This document shows, piece after piece, positions 1-26,108 of a stretch of DNA of 26,108 nt (within the stretch, counting starts at the first letter, position 1; the number at the start of each line of letters is the position of its first letter). The notes below the pieces were generated by a model. The model had not been told where the DNA came from. It did not search any database and saw only the letters and a program-made list of their open reading frames with translations. This DNA comes from a virus. The translations under genes and the position numbers were made by a program. The stretch spans positions 1-26,108 of the IMG/VR virus record IMGVR_UViG_3300016476_000505. One strand, 5' to 3'.

Positions 1-245
1 GATACTTGGACTTCAAACGTTGCCGTGAAAATGAACAAGCGAGTACGTATGCGTAAACCAAGAAGTAAAGCACCACCACTAAAAGAATTAGCGTTGCCCA
101 AAAGCGCAATGCACAAACCACTGCACGAACATGAAACGCTTGATGAGGCTGGGATGAGTAAGGTGGTACACAAAGATGGAACGCCCAAAAATCGCACCAC
201 CAAAGTACGACCCATTGAAGACGGGAAATCGTATCAGACTTGGAT
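1..245. repeat. Terminal direct repeat, copy 1. Same sequence as 25864..26108, implying a 25,863-bp circular, permuted or terminally redundant genome.
   Basis: Read by eye, 'gatacttggacttcaaacgttgccgtgaaaatgaacaagcg...gtatcagacttggat' is present at both window ends with no mismatch noticed. Confidence 0.9.
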
Positions 246-600
246 GAAATCGACAGGTCTAAAGCGAGCATTCCTGGCAGTCTACTCTGAATGTGGTAAT
301 TCTATATTGGCGTGCAATATTGTCGGACTTCACCCACGGCAAATCACTATATGGTTACGGGATGAGGACTTTGCAGAAGACTTTGATGTTGCAACGGAGT
401 ATGCAGTGGGATTATTAGAGCAAGAAGCCCGTAATCGTGCATTGGGTGGTTCTGATAAGTTGTTGGAGTTTTTGTTAAAGTCATTGAAGCCCGAAGTGTA
501 TCGGGAACGATACGAAGTCAAACAGGAAGTGGTTGGGGATTATGTCATTGACATCAGCATACCGCAACAAGAAACCAAGGACAGTACTTCGGACAGTTAA
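25..600 (+). CDS. terS: Terminase small subunit (putative, helix-turn-helix type)
   Basis: Sits immediately upstream of, and overlapping, the large terminase. Basic N-terminus. The segment 'GLHPRQITIWLRDEDFAEDF...LLEFLLKSLKPEVYRER' resembles HTH-type small terminases from memory. Assignment is mainly positional. Confidence 0.6.
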   Translation: MKMNKRVRMRKPRSKAPPLKELALPKSAMHKPLHEHETLDEAGMSKVVHKDGTPKNRTTKVRPIEDGKSYQTWMKSTGLKRAFLAVYSECGNSILACNIVGLHPRQITIWLRDEDFAEDFDVATEYAVGLLEQEARNRALGGSDKLLEFLLKSLKPEVYRERYEVKQEVVGDYVIDISIPQQETKDSTSDS

Positions 601-1759: not shown

Positions 1760-3787
1760 ATGCCAATACAATCATTACCGTATTGGGTAGACCAACTGAA
1801 AACAGATGGTAAGTTGGCAGGAACGATTGACGCTTACGAGCGCAACCCTGTTGTGTATCGTGCTGTCAATTTACGATGTGATGCAATCAGTAGTGTACCG
1901 TTCAAAGTCGAACGCAATGGTGAAGAGAGTGATTGGCACTTTACCACACCGTTGCCGTCATTGATTCGTGATACCGAACGGAGTCTACTGTTGACGGGAG
2001 CAGCATTTTGGTTGCGATTAAAGCGTGGCAAAATCCTGTTGGGATTCCGTGTATTGAATCCACTGACAATGCGTGTGCATTACAATCAGCAGGATTATGA
2101 CCCAATGAATCCACTTGCATCATTCCGCTTTGAGCAAGTCGTTGGTGCAAACAAGTGGACGTTCACAAGTGAAGACATTGTCTACTTCCGTGAACCAAGT
2201 TTCACCGATGAAGTAAAAAGTGGTTTAGCACCTGCCGAAGTAGCGCAACAATCAGCGCAACTGAATTACTACTTGGAACGCTTTAACAGTGCGTTCTTCG
2301 AGCATGGTGCGCAACCAATCACTATCATGTCAATGCCATCTGACGTGACACAAGCGGAAGCGCAACGGTTCGAAAACGATTGGCGAAGCAAAGTTACAGG
2401 GCTTATCAATTCATTCCGAACTGTCTTTATCCGTGGGGGTGACATTAAGACCACGGTGATTACACCACCATTGAAAGATTTGATGTTGCCTGAATTGTAT
2501 GACAACACCGTGAAGTCTATTTCAATGGCACTTGGAGTACCACGAACTATGTTGGAGGCGAGTGCTGCCAACTATGCTACTGCTGAATCCGACAGAAAGT
2601 CGTTTTGGCGAGAAACCGTTATTCCACGTATACCACTGTATGAGTACAACATCAACGACCAACTGTTATCTGAATTGGGGTATCGCCTGACATTCCAACC
2701 TGAAGCGTTGGACGTGATGCAAGAAGATGAAAATCAGCGTGCATCGTCATTGAAGTTACTTACTGACGCTGGTGTACCACTGAAAGATGCCATGATTATT
2801 CTTGGTTTCGATTACGAGATTACACCGCAAACAGTGTTGCCACCAAGTGTAAGCGAAGATGTGTACGTTGAAGAACCACCACGGGAAGTAGAAGTCGCAA
2901 GCGTAACAGAGGAAGTGGTTGAATCAGAAGTAGACAAACCACTGCCACGTTCATACAAGTTGTGGCGCAAGAAAGCAGAGCGTCAAATCAATGCTGGAAA
3001 GTCAATGGACTTTGTTTTCGTGAGTGAAGAAATTGATGCTGAAGACCATGCGTGGATTTCGTACAATCTTCAGTTATGTAAAGACTCCCACGATGTCAAG
3101 CATTTGTTTGACTCCCTGAAAGCAAGCATTAGTGAATCAGAGCGACCACTGTATAACGCTGTTGTTGCGACATTGAAGTCCATTGGTGATGACTTTATTG
3201 CCAATGTGATTCCTATGATTTCTTCTGGTTCGGTGCAAGAAGATGACGCACTGTTTGAGGAATTGGAAGTGGTAATGCGACCACTACTGTATCAGCGAGC
3301 GTTTAATCGGTTATCGGAATTGCAAGACCGCTACACCATTGACATTGATGATGCGTTGGAAGCCACGTTGATTAACGAGCAAATTGATGCGTACATGCCA
3401 AAAATGATTAAGGGAATGACAGATACCACCTACGCATTGGTTAAGCAGATTATTGACAAGGCGCGACTTTCTGGTGGGTACACCAACGAGCAACTTGTTG
3501 CATTACTGTCACCTGCATTTGGGAAGCGACGTGCTGAAATGATTGCGGTAACAGAGTACACACGTTCCGCTTCAATGGCTACTACGGTCTATAGTAATTA
3601 CTTGGCTGACTTTGGGGTGAAAACGGTTCGGGTATGGAATACCGAAAACGATGAAATTGTGAAGCGTTGCCCAATCTGTTATCCGTTGAACGGCAAGACA
3701 GATGATGTGTGGAGTGAGAAATACCCTGATGGCGCACCTGCGCACCCACGTTGCCGTTGTGACGTGTCAATAAGGATTGTACGATGA
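1760..3787 (+). CDS. Portal protein (HK97-type) fused in frame to a MuF/SPP1 gp7-like head morphogenesis domain
   Basis: The N-terminal ~400 aa look portal-like ('YERNPVVYRAVNLRCDAISSVPFKV') and sit right after terL. An acidic linker follows. The C-terminus 'WNTENDEIVKRCPICYPLNGK...PAHPRCRCDVS' is the hallmark MuF/gp7 motif. Confidence 0.8.
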   Translation: MPIQSLPYWVDQLKTDGKLAGTIDAYERNPVVYRAVNLRCDAISSVPFKVERNGEESDWHFTTPLPSLIRDTERSLLLTGAAFWLRLKRGKILLGFRVLNPLTMRVHYNQQDYDPMNPLASFRFEQVVGANKWTFTSEDIVYFREPSFTDEVKSGLAPAEVAQQSAQLNYYLERFNSAFFEHGAQPITIMSMPSDVTQAEAQRFENDWRSKVTGLINSFRTVFIRGGDIKTTVITPPLKDLMLPELYDNTVKSISMALGVPRTMLEASAANYATAESDRKSFWRETVIPRIPLYEYNINDQLLSELGYRLTFQPEALDVMQEDENQRASSLKLLTDAGVPLKDAMIILGFDYEITPQTVLPPSVSEDVYVEEPPREVEVASVTEEVVESEVDKPLPRSYKLWRKKAERQINAGKSMDFVFVSEEIDAEDHAWISYNLQLCKDSHDVKHLFDSLKASISESERPLYNAVVATLKSIGDDFIANVIPMISSGSVQEDDALFEELEVVMRPLLYQRAFNRLSELQDRYTIDIDDALEATLINEQIDAYMPKMIKGMTDTTYALVKQIIDKARLSGGYTNEQLVALLSPAFGKRRAEMIAVTEYTRSASMATTVYSNYLADFGVKTVRVWNTENDEIVKRCPICYPLNGKTDDVWSEKYPDGAPAHPRCRCDVSIRIVR

Positions 3788-17892: not shown

Positions 17893-20628
17893 TTATTCCC
17901 AACCGTATGCTGACTTGGTTTCGTCCGTTGCTTTGTAGTTGGTTGGATACTCTGGGTTTGGCTTGTACAACAATCCAACGGAAACCATGTACTCGCAAGC
18001 CGCAAACAATTCATCTAACGTTGGCATTGGCTTGATTGCGTAGCGCATCGTATTTGGAGTAGCGTGTGGGCGTTGCTTGTGGCTCGTCCACTTGCAGATG
18101 TGTGGAATAAGTTCTTTAATGCGTTCCTCGCTGACCGTTGGCATTACTGATTGTTCTGGTGTCTTCTCTGGTTCGGGCGTTGTGTGTGTCATTGTTTCCT
18201 CTTCTTCTGATTCTGGTTCGTTATCCGAAAGTTCGTTTTCCGTAAGCAATCGGTAACCAAGATAGCACTTGTTATCCGTACCACCTGTTACTTTGTAATC
18301 CTTGCCGTGGATTTCACGAATCTTATCGCCGATTTTGTTCTTCACTTTTTGAGCGTCCATGTCATTGTCAATGCCTTCTGCATACAACCACGACTTCCAC
18401 GCATCGTACACTTTATTCTTGTTGACAAACCCCATACCAACGTATCGCATACGTTCTTTGATAAAACGCCCAACCACGTCTTCTTCATCAACGTACTGCT
18501 GGGTAGCGTCATCCACTGCACGACACTTGGGAAGCCCCTCTTTGTACCATGCAATCGCACCCTCAACTGCCCAAGCCAAGATACCCTCCAATTCATCGTC
18601 AAAGTTCTGAATCATGACTTCTTGCGGTATCATGTCTTCTTTCTTGAACGTGACATTGAACGGAATCATTTTGATACGTCGCCAAAAGCCGTGGTTTGAC
18701 TCTTTGACACGCAATTTGTCATTGGCACTTACCCACATTTTGAAACGGGGAGTAAACGAAATTGGTTCTGCATTGAGCGTTCGGACTTTAATGCTTTCAC
18801 CGCCCGTCAAGTCTTTTACCAATGACTCCTTAAACGACTTCTTCAAATCTGGTTCGGTAACAGCGACCATACGCTTGTCAACAAGTTGGGTGATAAATGG
18901 TTGTGGTTTTGAGCCGTCCATTGGTTGCGACAGGATTACTTCAGCGTCAATTTTGTCATAGTAACGACCCTGACCCAACAAGCGTTGCATCATCGTGTTG
19001 AAGATACTCTTACCGTTCGCACCCGTACCGTACATGTAGAACAAGCATTGTGAACGGGTTGACCCTGTAAGGGTATATCCGATAGCGTGCTTAACGAACC
19101 GAATCAGTTCGCTGTCACCTGCGAATATGTCATTCATAAACTTGTCTAGGAACGTATGCTTGGCTTCTGGGGTATAGTTAATGTCAAGCATCTTGGTAAA
19201 CAGATAGGTGCGATTGTGTGGCAACAACTTCCCTGTTTGCAAGTCCACCACCCCGTTCTTTACACACAACAAGTCAATATGTTGGTTGAAATCGGTGGTC
19301 TTCACTTGGATAGCAGGGGTGGACTTAATCATCTTCACGATTGGCGAAATCTTGACTATGTTCAAATAGTTCGTGACAATCTTCAACAACTTTGGTGATG
19401 CAATCGAATTAGCGTATGCAACCAAGTCGTTGACGATTTCCATATACCGTTCCATAATGATGGTAATGTCATTGCGGTTCCCCTCTTTCCAAACCTTGCC
19501 GTCCCATAGCAGGAACATGTCTAGGTTTTGGTCGTACCGCAAGTTATCATTGAAGTTACGAATCACATACCCTGAAAAGTACGCATCGGTAAAAAACTCT
19601 GCATAGTATTCAGTTTCCAACCATTGCCGTTCGTTACTATCCATCATGCCACCAACCGTTGGTTCACTTGCAATTTGTTCAATGGTACGTGGCAATTCTT
19701 GGTTGGCAGCATCTTTCTTTGGTGTTGATGGTTTTTGCGGTGTTGCCAATGGTTTCTCTTTCATTGGTGGCAGTTCCAATGGATTTCGCAACCCATTTTC
19801 GAACCCCCATATAATCACGTTCATTTCCTTACGCTGTGCGCCTTTGGCTGGAATGTTGGCATTGTACAAACGGCGTATAATGTCATCTTCATCTACCCGT
19901 GATAACCCTGCGTTCATTACCGCTTGAGCATATCCACCAACAACCCGTGCATTGGCACGTCTGGTATCGTGTCGGTTGCTATTCCCTGCCATTGCGATAT
20001 TGTGAACCGCATCTTGGATTTTGTTTTCCAAGAAGCGTTCCAACCACAACGTGTTATACCCCGTGGTTTGGGCGTTTGCCACCACCGCCCGTACTGATTG
20101 CGTTGGTGTTGGTTTCGGGAATGACTTTAGTACATCGTCTAGTTCTGCATCACGTTCTTCAATGGTAAGTGGTGAATTAGCGATAGTGTTGCCCGTGATA
20201 GTGAAATACCGATGGGTGTTGTAGACTTCCATATCCAAGTCATCTGCGATTGGGAAGCGACCTGTTTCACTTGGAGTGCCAATCAGCAGGATATGAATAC
20301 CATTGCCACTAGGGGAAAACTCTGTATAGGAATTGATGTGGTTTATGATGCGTGATACTCTGGCATCAATAACCCCGTCTGCCACACAATGGTCAAAGTC
20401 CAAACCGACAATCCCTGATTCAATGTCGAATTGAAAACCAATGCCATTGAAGCCACGGGCGTTGACGCATTCCTCGTATGTTGACCACGTTGACTTATCG
20501 TTTGACTTGGCAGGCAACCCATTTGGCTGATACGGTGTTTTGTCTAACTTCCCATCCTTATACCCACGACCCCAACATACCCAATTTTTGTACGATTTCA
20601 AAAGTTCCATAGCAGGTAGATTTTCCAT
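17893..20628 (-). CDS. Bifunctional primase-polymerase (prim-pol) fused to a D5_N/P4-type SF3 helicase
   Basis: N-terminal 'WVCW...KTPYQPNG...GIGFQF...VGLDFDHC' is prim-pol-like. Walker A 'YGTGANGKS' and Walker B-like 'RMVAVTEPD' indicate a phage/plasmid P4-family helicase. Start at ATG 20628 with 'aaggagtatcacATG'. The track's extra 17 aa cover the promoter. Confidence 0.9.
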   Translation of the reverse strand: MENLPAMELLKSYKNWVCWGRGYKDGKLDKTPYQPNGLPAKSNDKSTWSTYEECVNARGFNGIGFQFDIESGIVGLDFDHCVADGVIDARVSRIINHINSYTEFSPSGNGIHILLIGTPSETGRFPIADDLDMEVYNTHRYFTITGNTIANSPLTIEERDAELDDVLKSFPKPTPTQSVRAVVANAQTTGYNTLWLERFLENKIQDAVHNIAMAGNSNRHDTRRANARVVGGYAQAVMNAGLSRVDEDDIIRRLYNANIPAKGAQRKEMNVIIWGFENGLRNPLELPPMKEKPLATPQKPSTPKKDAANQELPRTIEQIASEPTVGGMMDSNERQWLETEYYAEFFTDAYFSGYVIRNFNDNLRYDQNLDMFLLWDGKVWKEGNRNDITIIMERYMEIVNDLVAYANSIASPKLLKIVTNYLNIVKISPIVKMIKSTPAIQVKTTDFNQHIDLLCVKNGVVDLQTGKLLPHNRTYLFTKMLDINYTPEAKHTFLDKFMNDIFAGDSELIRFVKHAIGYTLTGSTRSQCLFYMYGTGANGKSIFNTMMQRLLGQGRYYDKIDAEVILSQPMDGSKPQPFITQLVDKRMVAVTEPDLKKSFKESLVKDLTGGESIKVRTLNAEPISFTPRFKMWVSANDKLRVKESNHGFWRRIKMIPFNVTFKKEDMIPQEVMIQNFDDELEGILAWAVEGAIAWYKEGLPKCRAVDDATQQYVDEEDVVGRFIKERMRYVGMGFVNKNKVYDAWKSWLYAEGIDNDMDAQKVKNKIGDKIREIHGKDYKVTGGTDNKCYLGYRLLTENELSDNEPESEEEETMTHTTPEPEKTPEQSVMPTVSEERIKELIPHICKWTSHKQRPHATPNTMRYAIKPMPTLDELFAACEYMVSVGLLYKPNPEYPTNYKATDETKSAYGWE

Positions 20629-20735: not shown

Positions 20736-21548
20736 CTAGAACATATCGTCTTCGTTGTCTTGGATTGCAATAGGAATGTTCTTTGCTGGTGGTGTTGATT
20801 GTGGTGATTGCGCTGATGGTGCATCGGTGGTACGGGTTTGCAACCGCCACTCCCCGTGGTCTTTCCACGCCTGATGGCACTTTTCAAGCATATCCTTGCC
20901 AACATACAACTTTAGTGCGGTTTCACGGGTAACAGGTTCACCGATTGCCAACACGGGTGGTGTAACAAACGAACCGTACTTGGTTTCCTGATATTCTACA
21001 CGACCATTTTTCTTGGCGCAAGAAATTGGAATCCAAAATGAAAATGGTGGAAGTTTCGCACCCTTTTTCATGGTCTTCTTGGCTTCTGCCATAACGGAAT
21101 CCGCAAACATGGCAAACACGCCCGTGGTCTTCCCTGTCAACGCCTTGCCCGTAAGACCCTTTACCGCAAGAATAACCAACCCGTCATACCCCTGCATAAA
21201 GCAAAGGATTTCGGTATACAGACTTGCACCATCTTCCCATTTATCCAACCACACTTTGCGTTTGCGGTCGTTGGCATCACGGTGGAACGCCTGATACCGC
21301 TTACGAATAGGAATGATGCTCAACTTTTCAGTCACATACCCGTCACCGTCTTGGAAGCGTTGCACTTTTGTCCACGGTGCGCCCAATGGAGTGTCGAACT
21401 CGTTCTCTGACGTGTAGAAGTGTCCTGCTGTGCCTGCCTGCTTAACCCCGTTGAACCACCAAATACGTGGATAACCCTGATACCCTACCTGCTCGTCGTC
21501 TTGGAAGTCGAAATCGTTCAACCCGTTGAAATCTTCGTTGTATGTCAT
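20736..21548 (-). CDS. Hypothetical protein, possibly ssDNA-binding (SSB-like acidic C-terminal tip)
   Basis: RBS 'aaggagtaatgcaATG'. A Pro/Ser/Thr/Gln-rich linker is followed by the terminal '...QDNEDDMF'. The fold was not recognised. Confidence 0.35.
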   Translation of the reverse strand: MTYNEDFNGLNDFDFQDDEQVGYQGYPRIWWFNGVKQAGTAGHFYTSENEFDTPLGAPWTKVQRFQDGDGYVTEKLSIIPIRKRYQAFHRDANDRKRKVWLDKWEDGASLYTEILCFMQGYDGLVILAVKGLTGKALTGKTTGVFAMFADSVMAEAKKTMKKGAKLPPFSFWIPISCAKKNGRVEYQETKYGSFVTPPVLAIGEPVTRETALKLYVGKDMLEKCHQAWKDHGEWRLQTRTTDAPSAQSPQSTPPAKNIPIAIQDNEDDMF

Positions 21549-23093: not shown

Positions 23094-23151
23094 CACAAAC
23101 TCTCTTTCACTCTCATTGTTAGCGTAGGATAGATTTCTATCCTTACATGTA

Positions 23152-23180
23152 ATTATACATCTATTCTACGATACTGTCAA
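23152..23180 (-). promoter_or_regulatory. Early leftward promoter with perfect sigma70 consensus
   Basis: The minus strand reads TTGACA (23180..23175), a 17-nt spacer, then TATAAT (23157..23152). An AT-rich UP-like stretch lies upstream. A 7-bp hairpin, aggatag/ctatcct (23126..23143), lies at the predicted 5' end of the transcript. Confidence 0.75.
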
Positions 23181-23293
23181 TAGGATTGTTGCAATTTGTT
23201 TTACGAATATTGAAATCCGCGCGCCCCGCGACCGCCGACCGAACCGCGAACGTCGTCTAGCAGTAGGCAGCACTCTTTCTGCTACCATGAAGT

Positions 23294-23569
23294 GAATTAA
23301 GGGCTTACTTAATTCCATTATTTGGCTTCCTATTGCGGTAAATGACACTTAATTAGGGAATTAAGGGTGCAATTAAATCAGATTTATTTTCACAACTATT
23401 GTATATACACCAATGTAAAACATTATTTTTAAAATTACGATTCATTACTATATTGCCTTAATTCCTTAATTAAGATAGTAATATAAGTGATTAGGAAGCC
23501 AAATACCGCAATTAAGGGTTGAATTAAGATTGGGAATTAAGGCTTAATCCAATGAAGCCCCTTAATCCC
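23294..23569. repeat. Array of AATTAAG/CTTAATT sites: 10 exact and 3 degenerate copies in both orientations
   Basis: Exact AATTAAG starts at 23295, 23359, 23468, 23510, 23522 and 23535. Exact CTTAATT starts at 23308, 23348, 23457 and 23465. Degenerate copies are at 23371, 23543 and 23561. The array includes the 10-bp palindrome CTTAATTAAG at 23465..23474. Confidence 0.85.
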
Positions 23570-23631
23570 AAGCACCCCTTATACCGCTGGAAATACCCCG
23601 TAATCGTACCTGAAATCGTGGTTTTGGCTAG

Positions 23632-23785
23632 TTGACATAATAATTATTCATTACAGCGGTTTTATTATGTCAATCAAAAATCATGATTATGTCAACTAAA
23701 ACCATTTTATGTCAAGCAGATTTCGTATTATGTCAAGCAAAGTGGCACTTTTTATTATGTAAATCTGTATCTGTGATTATGTCAA
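23632..23785. repeat. Iteron array: TTATGTCAA with 5 exact direct copies, 1 degenerate direct copy and 1 exact inverted copy
   Basis: The inverted TTGACATAA is at 23632..23640. Direct copies start at 23665, 23687, 23707, 23728, 23755 (TTATGTAAA) and 23777. Start-to-start spacings are 22, 20, 21, 27 and 22 nt. Confidence 0.9.
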
Positions 23786-23807
23786 CACTTGCACTACAGG
23801 GTATAAT
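23779..23807 (+). promoter_or_regulatory. Putative rightward (late/lysis) promoter
   Basis: ATGTCA (4/6 match to TTGACA, inside the last iteron), a 17-nt spacer, then perfect TATAAT (23802..23807). It lies about 90 nt upstream of the endolysin gene. Confidence 0.5.
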
Positions 23808-23897
23808 AAGAGTAGAGGATAGTGTAAACCCCACGTACATTTCCTCAATGTAGTGGTCTACCACTGATGGATGGTTCGAAGACTAGTACCGTGACAC

Positions 23898-24908: not shown

Positions 24909-25919
24909 ATGCCACCACAAAGAACCCACAACAAGTGGAGATTCATTGTGCGTGAAAATGGAAGTAGGAAGTGGAAGTCTTTTGACGACTATGAAACCTG
25001 CTACGCTGAATGGGTTGCGTACCACAACCGCAACAAAGCAACATCACCCACATCAGTAGAAGTTAATTACATTGAACAGTATACTGATGTGGGAACGTTG
25101 TGGGATTATGCCACAAGTAATCCTAGCGTCAAGCGAAAAGACATACCATTTGTTACATTCCCTGCCAATGAATCGTTCGCAATCGTATTCCTCTCTGACT
25201 TGCACATTGGCAACGCCGCAACTGACTATGAGAATCTGCGGCGTGATGCTGAAATCATTCGCACTACTGACAATATGTATGCGTTCTTTCATGGTGATGG
25301 AATTGATAATTGGATTGTAGGAAAGTTACAATCTTTGCAACGAGGGCAATCCATACCGTTCGACAGCGAGATGGCATTGTTCCAAGCGTGGATTACGACC
25401 ATACAACCAAAACTAATAGGTGTAGTAGCAGGGAATCACGATAATTGGACAAAGAAGATGGCAGGGATTGATTACCTAAAGCATATCAGTCCACCATTTG
25501 CCATGTACGATGCAAACGAAGTGATATTTCGGCTGCTTTGGGGAAGTAACAGTAAGACCATTGCCGTTCGTCATAAGTGGCGTGGTACATCAATCCTGAA
25601 CCCTACGCATGGTATGGAGCGTGCAAGTAAGGATATTGATGCGGACATATACGTTGGCGGACATACCCATATCGGTACACTATTCCGTGACTTCGTGGTA
25701 CGTCAACGTGACCGTATTGCAGTGCTGACAGGTACGTACAAAGTGGTTGATTCCTATGGTGATGAATTAGGATTGCCACCACCGCAACATAGTGGGTGTG
25801 GTGCAATCGTCTTTGACCCTGATGGTTCAATGACGGTGATGCGCAACCTGACAGAAGCAGCACGATACTTGGACTTCAAACGTTGCCGTGAAAATGAACA
25901 AGCGAGTACGTATGCGTAA
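24909..25919 (+). CDS. Calcineurin-like metallophosphoesterase with an AP2-like N-terminal extension
   Basis: All metallophosphoesterase (MPE) motifs are present: 'SDLHIG' (DxH), 'HGDGID' (GDxxD), 'AGNHDNW' (GNHD), 'VRHKW' and 'GGHTH' (GHxH). The N-terminal 'NKWRFIVRENGSRKWKSFDDYETCYAEWVAYH' resembles the AP2/integrase-type DNA-binding pattern. The 3' end overlaps the terS start in circular coordinates. Confidence 0.8.
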   Translation: MPPQRTHNKWRFIVRENGSRKWKSFDDYETCYAEWVAYHNRNKATSPTSVEVNYIEQYTDVGTLWDYATSNPSVKRKDIPFVTFPANESFAIVFLSDLHIGNAATDYENLRRDAEIIRTTDNMYAFFHGDGIDNWIVGKLQSLQRGQSIPFDSEMALFQAWITTIQPKLIGVVAGNHDNWTKKMAGIDYLKHISPPFAMYDANEVIFRLLWGSNSKTIAVRHKWRGTSILNPTHGMERASKDIDADIYVGGHTHIGTLFRDFVVRQRDRIAVLTGTYKVVDSYGDELGLPPPQHSGCGAIVFDPDGSMTVMRNLTEAARYLDFKRCRENEQASTYA

Positions 25920-26108
25920 ACCAAGAAGTAAAGCACCACCACTAAAAGAATTAGCGTTGCCCAAAAGCGCAATGCACAAACCACTGCACGAACATGAAAC
26001 GCTTGATGAGGCTGGGATGAGTAAGGTGGTACACAAAGATGGAACGCCCAAAAATCGCACCACCAAAGTACGACCCATTGAAGACGGGAAATCGTATCAG
26101 ACTTGGAT
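25864..26108. repeat. Terminal direct repeat, copy 2. It contains a second, truncated image of the terS 5' end from 25888.
   Basis: Same sequence as 1..245. The terS ATG at 25 corresponds to 25888. Confidence 0.9.

Follow-up and report, generated by a model that had tools for sequence, protein, structure and literature searches.

What is the function of a dense cluster of short inverted sites placed symmetrically around the most AT-rich stretch of a phage genome? The cluster, composed of the 7-mer AATTAAG and its complement CTTAATT, lies at 23294-23569 of IMG/VR record IMGVR_UViG_3300016476_000505, a viral stretch of 26,108 nucleotides that was analysed over its full length and is referred to here as the window. 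The ends of the window share an exact 245-bp overlap (1-245 = 25864-26108), so it represents a complete circular assembly of 25,863 bp. The cluster is part of the sole large non-coding region of this genome (23097-23897), which separates the divergent early and late operons. A moderately probable answer is that the cluster and its AT-rich core form the replication origin of the phage, of the type known from staphylococcal pathogenicity islands (SaPIs).

The AATTAAG/CTTAATT word occurs exactly 11 times in the window, and 10 of these copies fall within 23295-23541. A direct count bore out the ten exact and three degenerate 7-mers reported for 23294-23569 in the original prediction. Its expected 0.03 copies under uniform composition is correct as arithmetic, but an expectation matched to the composition of the region is about 0.24. 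In 2000 dinucleotide-preserving shuffles of 23294-23569 the mean count was 0.24 and the maximum 3, against the 10 observed, and no 7-mer of any sequence reached 10 copies. The sites can be extended to a consensus of about GAATTAAGG (7-9 bp). Their orientations read + - - + (+) | - - + + + + (-)(-), with degenerate copies in brackets, and the core splits them into five on the left and eight on the right.

Symmetry is evident at two scales. Three local palindromes (23294..23315, 23348..23365 and 23465..23474) are present as described. The larger imperfect inverted repeat, with arms at 23308-23332 and 23492-23516, is likewise real and was undercounted, matching at 22 rather than 20 of 25 positions. 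It extends to 23308-23366 against 23456-23516 (47 of 61 columns, with a 2-nt indel) and includes a second arm pair, 23348-23366 and 23456-23474, that matches at 18 of 19 positions. Single-strand folding of the region gives z = -5.1, a value that restates the inverted repeat. Between the arms, the stretch 23371-23450 holds 15 G+C (18.75%), as first counted, and this is also the lowest value of any 80-nt window in the genome. The least stable duplex of the genome by nearest-neighbour free energy is 23394-23494, about 5 standard deviations from the mean whether 60, 80 or 100 nt are scanned at a time.

Relatives of the phage carry the same architecture built from different words. In a database of 5.8 billion proteins the next-best primase-helicase is 34% identical to that of the window, and metagenomic relatives of the large terminase subunit TerL, the portal and the amidase are found at 50-67% identity. 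The syntenic region upstream of the amidase gene was recovered from several of these metagenomic relatives (L numbers below). In the closer ones a single short word is clustered in both orientations around an AT-rich core at the same intergenic place. The word is AATGGAAAT in L123/L217, GTGGAGAT in L133/L124/L223, and GATTGAGG or AATTGAGG in L135, one base from the word of the window. In L221, where the contig is cut at the core and the box-1-like sequence (see below) was read by eye, AATGGAGAA surrounds an AT-rich stretch. The words are nearly confined to this region, with 8-mer counts for region and whole locus of 9/9, 7/8, 10/10 and 7/8. The region also holds the largest mixed-orientation cluster of any one 7-mer in each locus, L123/L217 and L133 having one weaker 5-copy cluster each elsewhere. 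L116 is the sole relative in which no phage-specific site cluster was found; its early region contains a LAGLIDADG homing endonuclease gene (2449-3171).

A conserved scaffold accompanies the changing words. Its order is box 1 (TTTGGCnTyCTAATCACT), a spacer of 10-13 nt, a tandem word pair 7-9 bp apart, a ATATAGTAA-like sequence, the AT core and inverted sites. Box 1 is present in L123, L133 and L124 and degenerate in L135, and it keeps a fixed distance from the tandem site pair despite the differing words. No known binding motif was recognised in it. As read from the sequence, a (T/A)TACCGC box is also present in L133, L124 and L135 (TTTACCGCT) and occurs four times in L225/L226. The scaffold module of the window reads on the minus strand, from 23503 down to 23457. 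Either the central module has the opposite orientation to the flanking genes, or its mirror copy became the better-preserved one.

The pattern of change is that expected of sites under selection. L133 and L124 are 88% identical overall and 93% identical in this region, with changes in 0 of 56 shared exact-site columns versus 34 of 456 other columns. The flanking genes of L133 and L135 share about 77% identity, but the region itself cannot be aligned at all between the two. Unchanged site columns in one pair and an unalignable region in the other argue that the sites are under selection and that the word is replaced as a set. A search between L133 and L135 for an early protein that covaries with the word yielded two small unassigned proteins and the N-terminal tail of the small terminase subunit TerS.

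In other relatives the equivalent dyad is attached to a replication gene. All genes of L218/L220 and L228 are co-directional. The stop codon of the primase-helicase gene is immediately followed by the dyad, which consists of 7-8 bp words in tandem and inverted arrangement about an AT-rich centre. L236 has a cluster of AATCCGA/TCGGATT (8 copies) in the 3′ end of its primase-helicase gene, a non-homologous one of the Toprim+AAA_25 type. Between L218 and L220 all four site copies have changed together, from TACGATGG/TACGATTG (TACGATKG) to TACGAATG, symmetrically in both arms, and apart from the four sites the element is conserved. The C-terminal regions of the two primase-helicases are 92% identical with 19 differences, 6 of them among the 35 residues of the predicted recognition helix and wing versus 13 among 217 elsewhere (Fisher p=0.033). 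The recognition helices of the two TerS proteins are identical. The concerted site change, combined with the winged-helix substitutions, is the only support, and an indirect one, for binding of the sites by the primase-helicase in the way that Rep binds iterons. In several relatives the space between the dyad and the late promoter also holds canonical DnaA boxes, which marks the intergenic region as replication-related. The box TTATCCACA is found three times in L218, twice with a degenerate third copy in L220 and L249, and four times in L238; TTATGCACA is found three times in L116.

The primase-helicase of the window is the candidate initiator. Its domain matches are PrimPol, D5_N, DUF5906 and a Pox_D5-like C-terminal region. 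The best match to a solved structure is PriRep5 of SaPI5 (PDB 7OLA, E=1.1e-26); two stretches match, and the higher-scoring one is the N-terminal primase domain (residues 22-174). A family profile built from the C-terminal fragment of the window protein and full-length database homologues matches 7OLA over nearly its full length (E=1.9e-100). In an AlphaFold model of residues 690-928, the part from about 700 to 820 is confident, with a predicted local distance difference test score (pLDDT) of about 90. The folds ranked closest to the model are those of winged-helix domains, namely the RFX DNA-binding domain and the C-terminal domain of the African swine fever virus primase-helicase. Residues ~820-928 (17893-18220, minus strand) comprise an acidic linker and, beyond the winged helix, an additional stretch of about 75 aa at the C-terminus; this stretch is absent from database homologues and modelled with low confidence.

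According to the study that describes the 7OLA structure (PMC9371898), SaPI Reps recognise 6-12 iterons of five or six nucleotides with their C-terminal winged helix. The iterons are divided equally between the two flanks of an AT-rich region, at least two on either flank face in opposite directions, and Rep loads itself at this place. Where a SaPI-type origin calls for six or more short (5-8 bp) repeated iterons, the window has its 10 exact and three degenerate 7-mers, about half of them on either flank of the AT-rich centre and at least two per side in opposite directions. The same element encodes a Rep-family superfamily 3 (SF3) helicase with a C-terminal winged helix, as judged from weak fold matches. 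Of the architectural features of a SaPI-type origin, only the position immediately downstream of rep is lacking. Where the original prediction could name neither binding protein, the field has narrowed for the AATTAAG sites to a leading candidate, the winged helix of the primase-helicase.

The origin-like layout put forward in the original prediction is the best-supported reading, owing to the conserved architecture with phage-specific words, the dyads at replicative primase-helicase genes in three other lineages and the homology to the SaPI initiator. The site-binding protein, the melting step and the origin activity itself are predictions from sequence. At such an origin the C-terminal winged helix of the primase-helicase would recognise the 7-9 bp sites, and oligomers would form on the two oppositely oriented clusters. 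The core of about 80-90 bp between them would melt and receive the helicase rings. The N-terminal PrimPol domain would prime synthesis and, since the phage encodes no DNA polymerase, a host polymerase would extend the primers. Among the proteins encoded by the genome, neither a DNA polymerase nor an integrase, repressor, partition protein or separate initiator was found.

Several observations weigh against a primase-linked origin. A distance of 2.4 kb separates the cluster from the start of the primase-helicase gene; it is not at the downstream end of that gene, where only 19 nt follow the stop codon, and its assignment to the primase-linked type is one of architecture only. No DnaA box (TTATNCACA) with up to one mismatch was found in 23097-23897. 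The Foldseek matches behind the predicted winged helix are weak (best E=1.9e-3). A variable helix-turn-helix is present in TerS as well. The first residues of its recognition helix are PR in the window and in L135, two phages with similar words, and PS or PA in L123, L221 and L133. Finally, a second dyad called element B, an almost perfect palindrome of 150 bp in which 2+2 copies of CAAACTCCCATTTTA flank a T-rich centre, is invariant in L218, L220 and L249 though the primase-helicases are 51% identical, and the C-terminal 250 residues of the enzyme are only 35% identical between L249 and L220. Thus, not every dyad in the region follows the primase-helicase. Element B may be a packaging (pac) site or a late regulatory site.

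The AATTAAG cluster might itself be a pac site, which is unlikely but the strongest of the alternatives. The helix-turn-helix domains of TerS (25..600) would bind sites flanking a bendable AT-rich core, and TerL would make its first cut there. Two clusters around a core fit known pac sites, the region heads the late operon that holds terS and terL, and circular assemblies are compatible with headful packaging. The nearest characterised TerL is that of psiM2, a pac-type phage. Among the relatives, the N-terminal helix-turn-helix region of TerS is variable and its C-terminal part nearly invariant; the PR helix start is shared by the window and L135, whose words are one base apart, and the group with GTGGAGA/AATGGA words has PS or PA. 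Element B, moreover, travels with the late module and not with the primase. Pac sites, however, usually lie in or next to terS, and the cluster is 2.3 kb upstream of it, with the amidase, 75-aa, 58-aa and metallophosphatase genes in between. The extreme duplex instability is not required of a pac site, and the equivalent dyads of L218/L220, L228 and L236 stand at the ends of replication genes. The TerS recognition helices of L218 and L220 are the same, even though their four sites have all changed in concert. Binding by SPP1-type TerS is also largely independent of sequence (PMC4737164). The contig ends of the relatives are uninformative on packaging ends. The contigs L119, L120 and L122, which represent one relative in three samples, share their start base 92 nt upstream of the 58-aa gene, and L125 extends further; the shared start reflects a mosaic junction or else a physical end of the DNA.

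A second site family adjoins the AATTAAG cluster. This neighbouring iteron array (23632-23785) is real, and its TTATGTCAA sites are spaced by about 21 bp, a spacing that the AATTAAG sites do not show. There is overlap between its last copy and the late promoter. The AT cores of L123, L133 and L124 contain similar words (TTATGTAAA, TTTACATAA and TTGACATAA). The earlier proposal of two site families with two binding proteins gains support, since the AATTAAG family varies and the TTATGTCAA-like family is conserved and sits where relatives have their DnaA boxes. The array appears to be a second, separately recognised element, whose role may be to bind an auxiliary factor or to regulate the late promoter. 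A more elaborate form of the origin reading, which is rather doubtful, treats the whole as modular. Within one phage family, the full set of about ten initiator sites would have been replaced several times on a conserved scaffold of box 1, the TACCGC box and the AT core, with box 1 read by a conserved factor. The TTATGTCAA/TTATGTAAA sites stand in the place of the DnaA boxes of relatives, and the phage family would switch between DnaA-assisted initiation and initiation by phage proteins only; the dyad might also serve packaging.

It is improbable that the sites are operators for a phage-specific regulator of the early-to-late switch, acting by looping or through a multi-site nucleoprotein complex, for which phi29 p4/p6 and the Mu repressor are models. 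The cluster does lie between the divergent early and late promoters, site words that differ among related phages are typical of immunity and operator systems, and several small early proteins are without assigned function. The AT core of L133/L124 even contains a canonical rightward promoter, TT(G/T)ACA-17-CATAAT. In the window, no canonical sigma-70 promoter was found inside the core, and the sites neither overlap nor abut the two flanking promoters, the nearest being 115 bp from the early promoter (-35 element) and about 210 bp from the late one. No repressor-like or helix-turn-helix protein was detected among the early genes of the window. An array of 10-13 sites around a melting-prone core would be atypical of operators, and in L218-type phages the dyad comes after a gene of the same direction, outside any divergent promoter region. 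As the cluster is 115 bp upstream of the early promoter, it is not transcribed from it.

A mobile element with terminal inverted repeats, such as a miniature inverted-repeat transposable element (MITE), a phage attachment site (attP) or a partition site is very improbable and was rejected: the long imperfect inverted repeat (47/61) is superficially like terminal inverted repeats, the sites around a core recall the arm-type sites of attP, and site arrays recall parC or parS, but no integrase, transposase, ParA/ParB or ParM/ParR was found in the genome, the same position and scaffold are shared by relatives only about 60% identical at the protein level, and the exact word cluster was not found as a repeat elsewhere, its IMG/VR matches being unrelated tandem repeats. 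Scans for Rfam families and tRNAs over the whole window gave no matches, and the readings as an RNA gene or a tRNA-based attP were therefore rejected as well. An IMG/VR scan for three spaced AATTAAG copies gave 110 matches, all of them giant-virus tandem repeats or unrelated iterons. Two contigs of about 4.2 kb in IMG/VR (L006, 198-240; L034, 1981-2020) carry four tandem copies of AATTAAGG, after which come an (ATA)n tract and a number of CTTAAGG/CCTTAAG sites of either orientation; they appear to be an unrelated small element that uses a very similar word. An IMG/VR scan with the primase alignment gave only an unrelated, abundant phage group.

The late promoter has a layout common to all relatives, in which a TTGACN-like hexamer stands just 7 nt, and not 17, before TATAAT, and a conserved GTAGAGGA(T) follows 4-5 nt downstream of TATAAT. 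The conserved layout suggests that the promoter is factor-dependent. A palindrome, GGATAG-ATTT-CTATCC (23127-23142), lies just downstream of the early -10 element, and AGGATAG (23816-23822) lies downstream of the late -10 element at the same distance. These GGATAG elements may be a shared operator or a 5′ leader element. Between the early promoter and the left cluster is a 40-nt block of about 80% G+C (CCGCGCGCCCCGCGACCGCCGACCGAACCGCGAACGTCG, 23217-23256), in a genome of 45% G+C, that is identical across all five contigs of the phage. An open reading frame at 23166..23348 (minus strand, 60 aa) was judged spurious, given its overlap with the left cluster, its place upstream of the early promoter and the lack of a counterpart in the relatives.

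The phage as a whole is best described as a virulent-looking siphovirus and not a satellite. Late genes on the plus strand encode the amidase, two small membrane-like proteins, a metallophosphatase, TerS, TerL, portal, capsid and tail. Early genes on the minus strand encode five small unassigned proteins, the 928-aa primase-helicase, a VRR-NUC nuclease, a dCTP deaminase and ThyX. The five small proteins had no family match in Pfam, PHROGs or NCBIfam, and the first of them (142 aa) is nearly an orphan. A 270-aa protein (20736-21548, minus strand) adjoins the primase-helicase upstream and has no family match; it is 54% identical to its counterpart in L123/L217, and its acidic C-terminus (...QDNEDDMF) is like the tip of single-strand DNA-binding proteins. 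Four further public contigs of the phage, more than 99.9% identical and with different breakpoints, add no comparative information. A DNA similarity search of INPHARED found no matching phage, and the best INPHARED matches for the primase and TerL are 26-34% identical. An alignment of the portal against 185,579 species genomes found no relative. The features of the region are collected in Table 1.

Table 1. Position of the candidate origin and associated features. Coordinates are those of the window unless a relative is named.
Feature	Position	Strand	Description
Left site cluster	23294..23377		AATTAAG/CTTAATT sites + 23295, - 23308, - 23348, + 23359; degenerate + 23371 (AATTAAA); two local palindromes
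AT-rich core, candidate unwinding element	23378..23456		dyad centre (midpoint ~23411), lowest G+C, least stable duplex
Right site cluster	23457..23569		tandem pair - 23457, - 23465 (8 bp apart); + 23468, 23510, 23522, 23535; degenerate - 23543, 23561 (both CTTAATC)
Scaffold box 1, TTTGGCTTCCTAATCACTT	23485..23503	-	followed by 10-13 nt spacer and tandem site pair
Partial mirror copy of box 1, TTTGGCTTCCTA	23321..23332	+	left arm
ATTGCGGTAAAT	23332..23343	+	inverted partner of AAATACCGCAAT
AAATACCGCAAT	23501..23512	+	right-arm copy of the TACCGC box
Box 1 (conserved 19-nt) in window and relatives	window 23485-23503; L123 5674-5692; L133 6155-6173; L124 ~607-625; L135 6863-6881	- (window)	
Second site family	23632..23785		seven copies: TTGACATAA at 23632, then five TTATGTCAA and one TTATGTAAA; spacing 20-27 bp
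Early leftward promoter	23152..23180	-	TTGACA-17-TATAAT, 12/12 match
Late rightward promoter	23789..23807	+	TTGCAC-N7-TATAAT, -10 element 23802-23807; GTAGAGGAT downstream
Late promoter layout in window and relatives	window 23789-23822; L123 6108-6140; L133 6454-6490; L135 7131-7165; L116 7157-7190; L218 3480-3500		
Primase-helicase, 928 aa	17893..20679	-	PrimPol + D5_N/SF3 helicase + predicted C-terminal winged helix (encoded ~18235-18477)
Element B	L218 3170-3310; L220 925-1070; L249 4120-4260		

A probable origin and a probable pair of initiator and sites are thereby located for a family of uncultured freshwater siphoviruses of about 26 kb that is without a close sequenced isolate. The element is of an ordinary kind and does not overturn current views. 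It would extend the logic of SaPI-type origins from satellites to complete phages. The natural series of swapped words on one scaffold could be used to study the co-evolution of initiator and origin specificity.

Among known systems, the origins of iteron plasmids and lambda-type phages likewise place initiator sites beside an AT-rich unwinding element, and the relatives add DnaA boxes. The window differs in having sites on both sides of the core, inverted and without a DnaA box. Classical theta origins have 17-22 bp direct-repeat iterons in helical phase, in contrast to the 7-9 bp AATTAAG sites with their mixed orientation and irregular spacing. In the pac site of P1, hexamer clusters of 4 and 3 flank the cleavage region. 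The packaging site of SPP1 has the layout pacL-pacC-pacR (PMC4737164). Both share with the window phage-specific clusters of short words around a centre of about 90 bp. They are bound by terminase, lie in or next to the terminase genes, as the cluster does not, and do not require a melting-prone core.

The element of the window resembles the origins of P4 and of polyomaviruses more loosely than that of SaPIs. The P4 alpha protein is a fused primase-SF3 helicase whose C-terminal origin-binding domain recognises repeated octamers, and P4 needs two separated cis elements, ori and crr. The window shares the fusion of primase and SF3 helicase, whereas P4 lacks two inverted clusters around a single AT core. 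In polyomavirus and papillomavirus origins, inverted pentamers or hexamers lie beside an AT tract on which an SF3 double hexamer assembles (large T antigen, E1). These have a eukaryotic host, a compact core (~64 bp) and origin-binding domains unrelated to that of the window.

The closest parallel is with the origins of SaPIbov1, SaPI1 and SaPI5, where many short iterons in opposite orientations also lie on both sides of an AT-rich region (PMC9371898). SaPI Rep and PriRep are, like the window protein, SF3 helicases with a C-terminal winged helix, which in the window is a predicted one, and in both systems the site words are element-specific. SaPI sites are 5-6 bp, and those of the window are longer (7-9 bp) and more numerous (10-13). 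The SaPI origin is directly downstream of rep, whereas the element of the window is 2.4 kb away between divergent promoters; its relatives L218/L220 and L228 have the SaPI position, after the primase-helicase gene. Unlike a SaPI origin, the element of the window combines its iterons with conserved scaffold boxes and an adjacent second site array, and it is carried by a siphovirus instead of a satellite.

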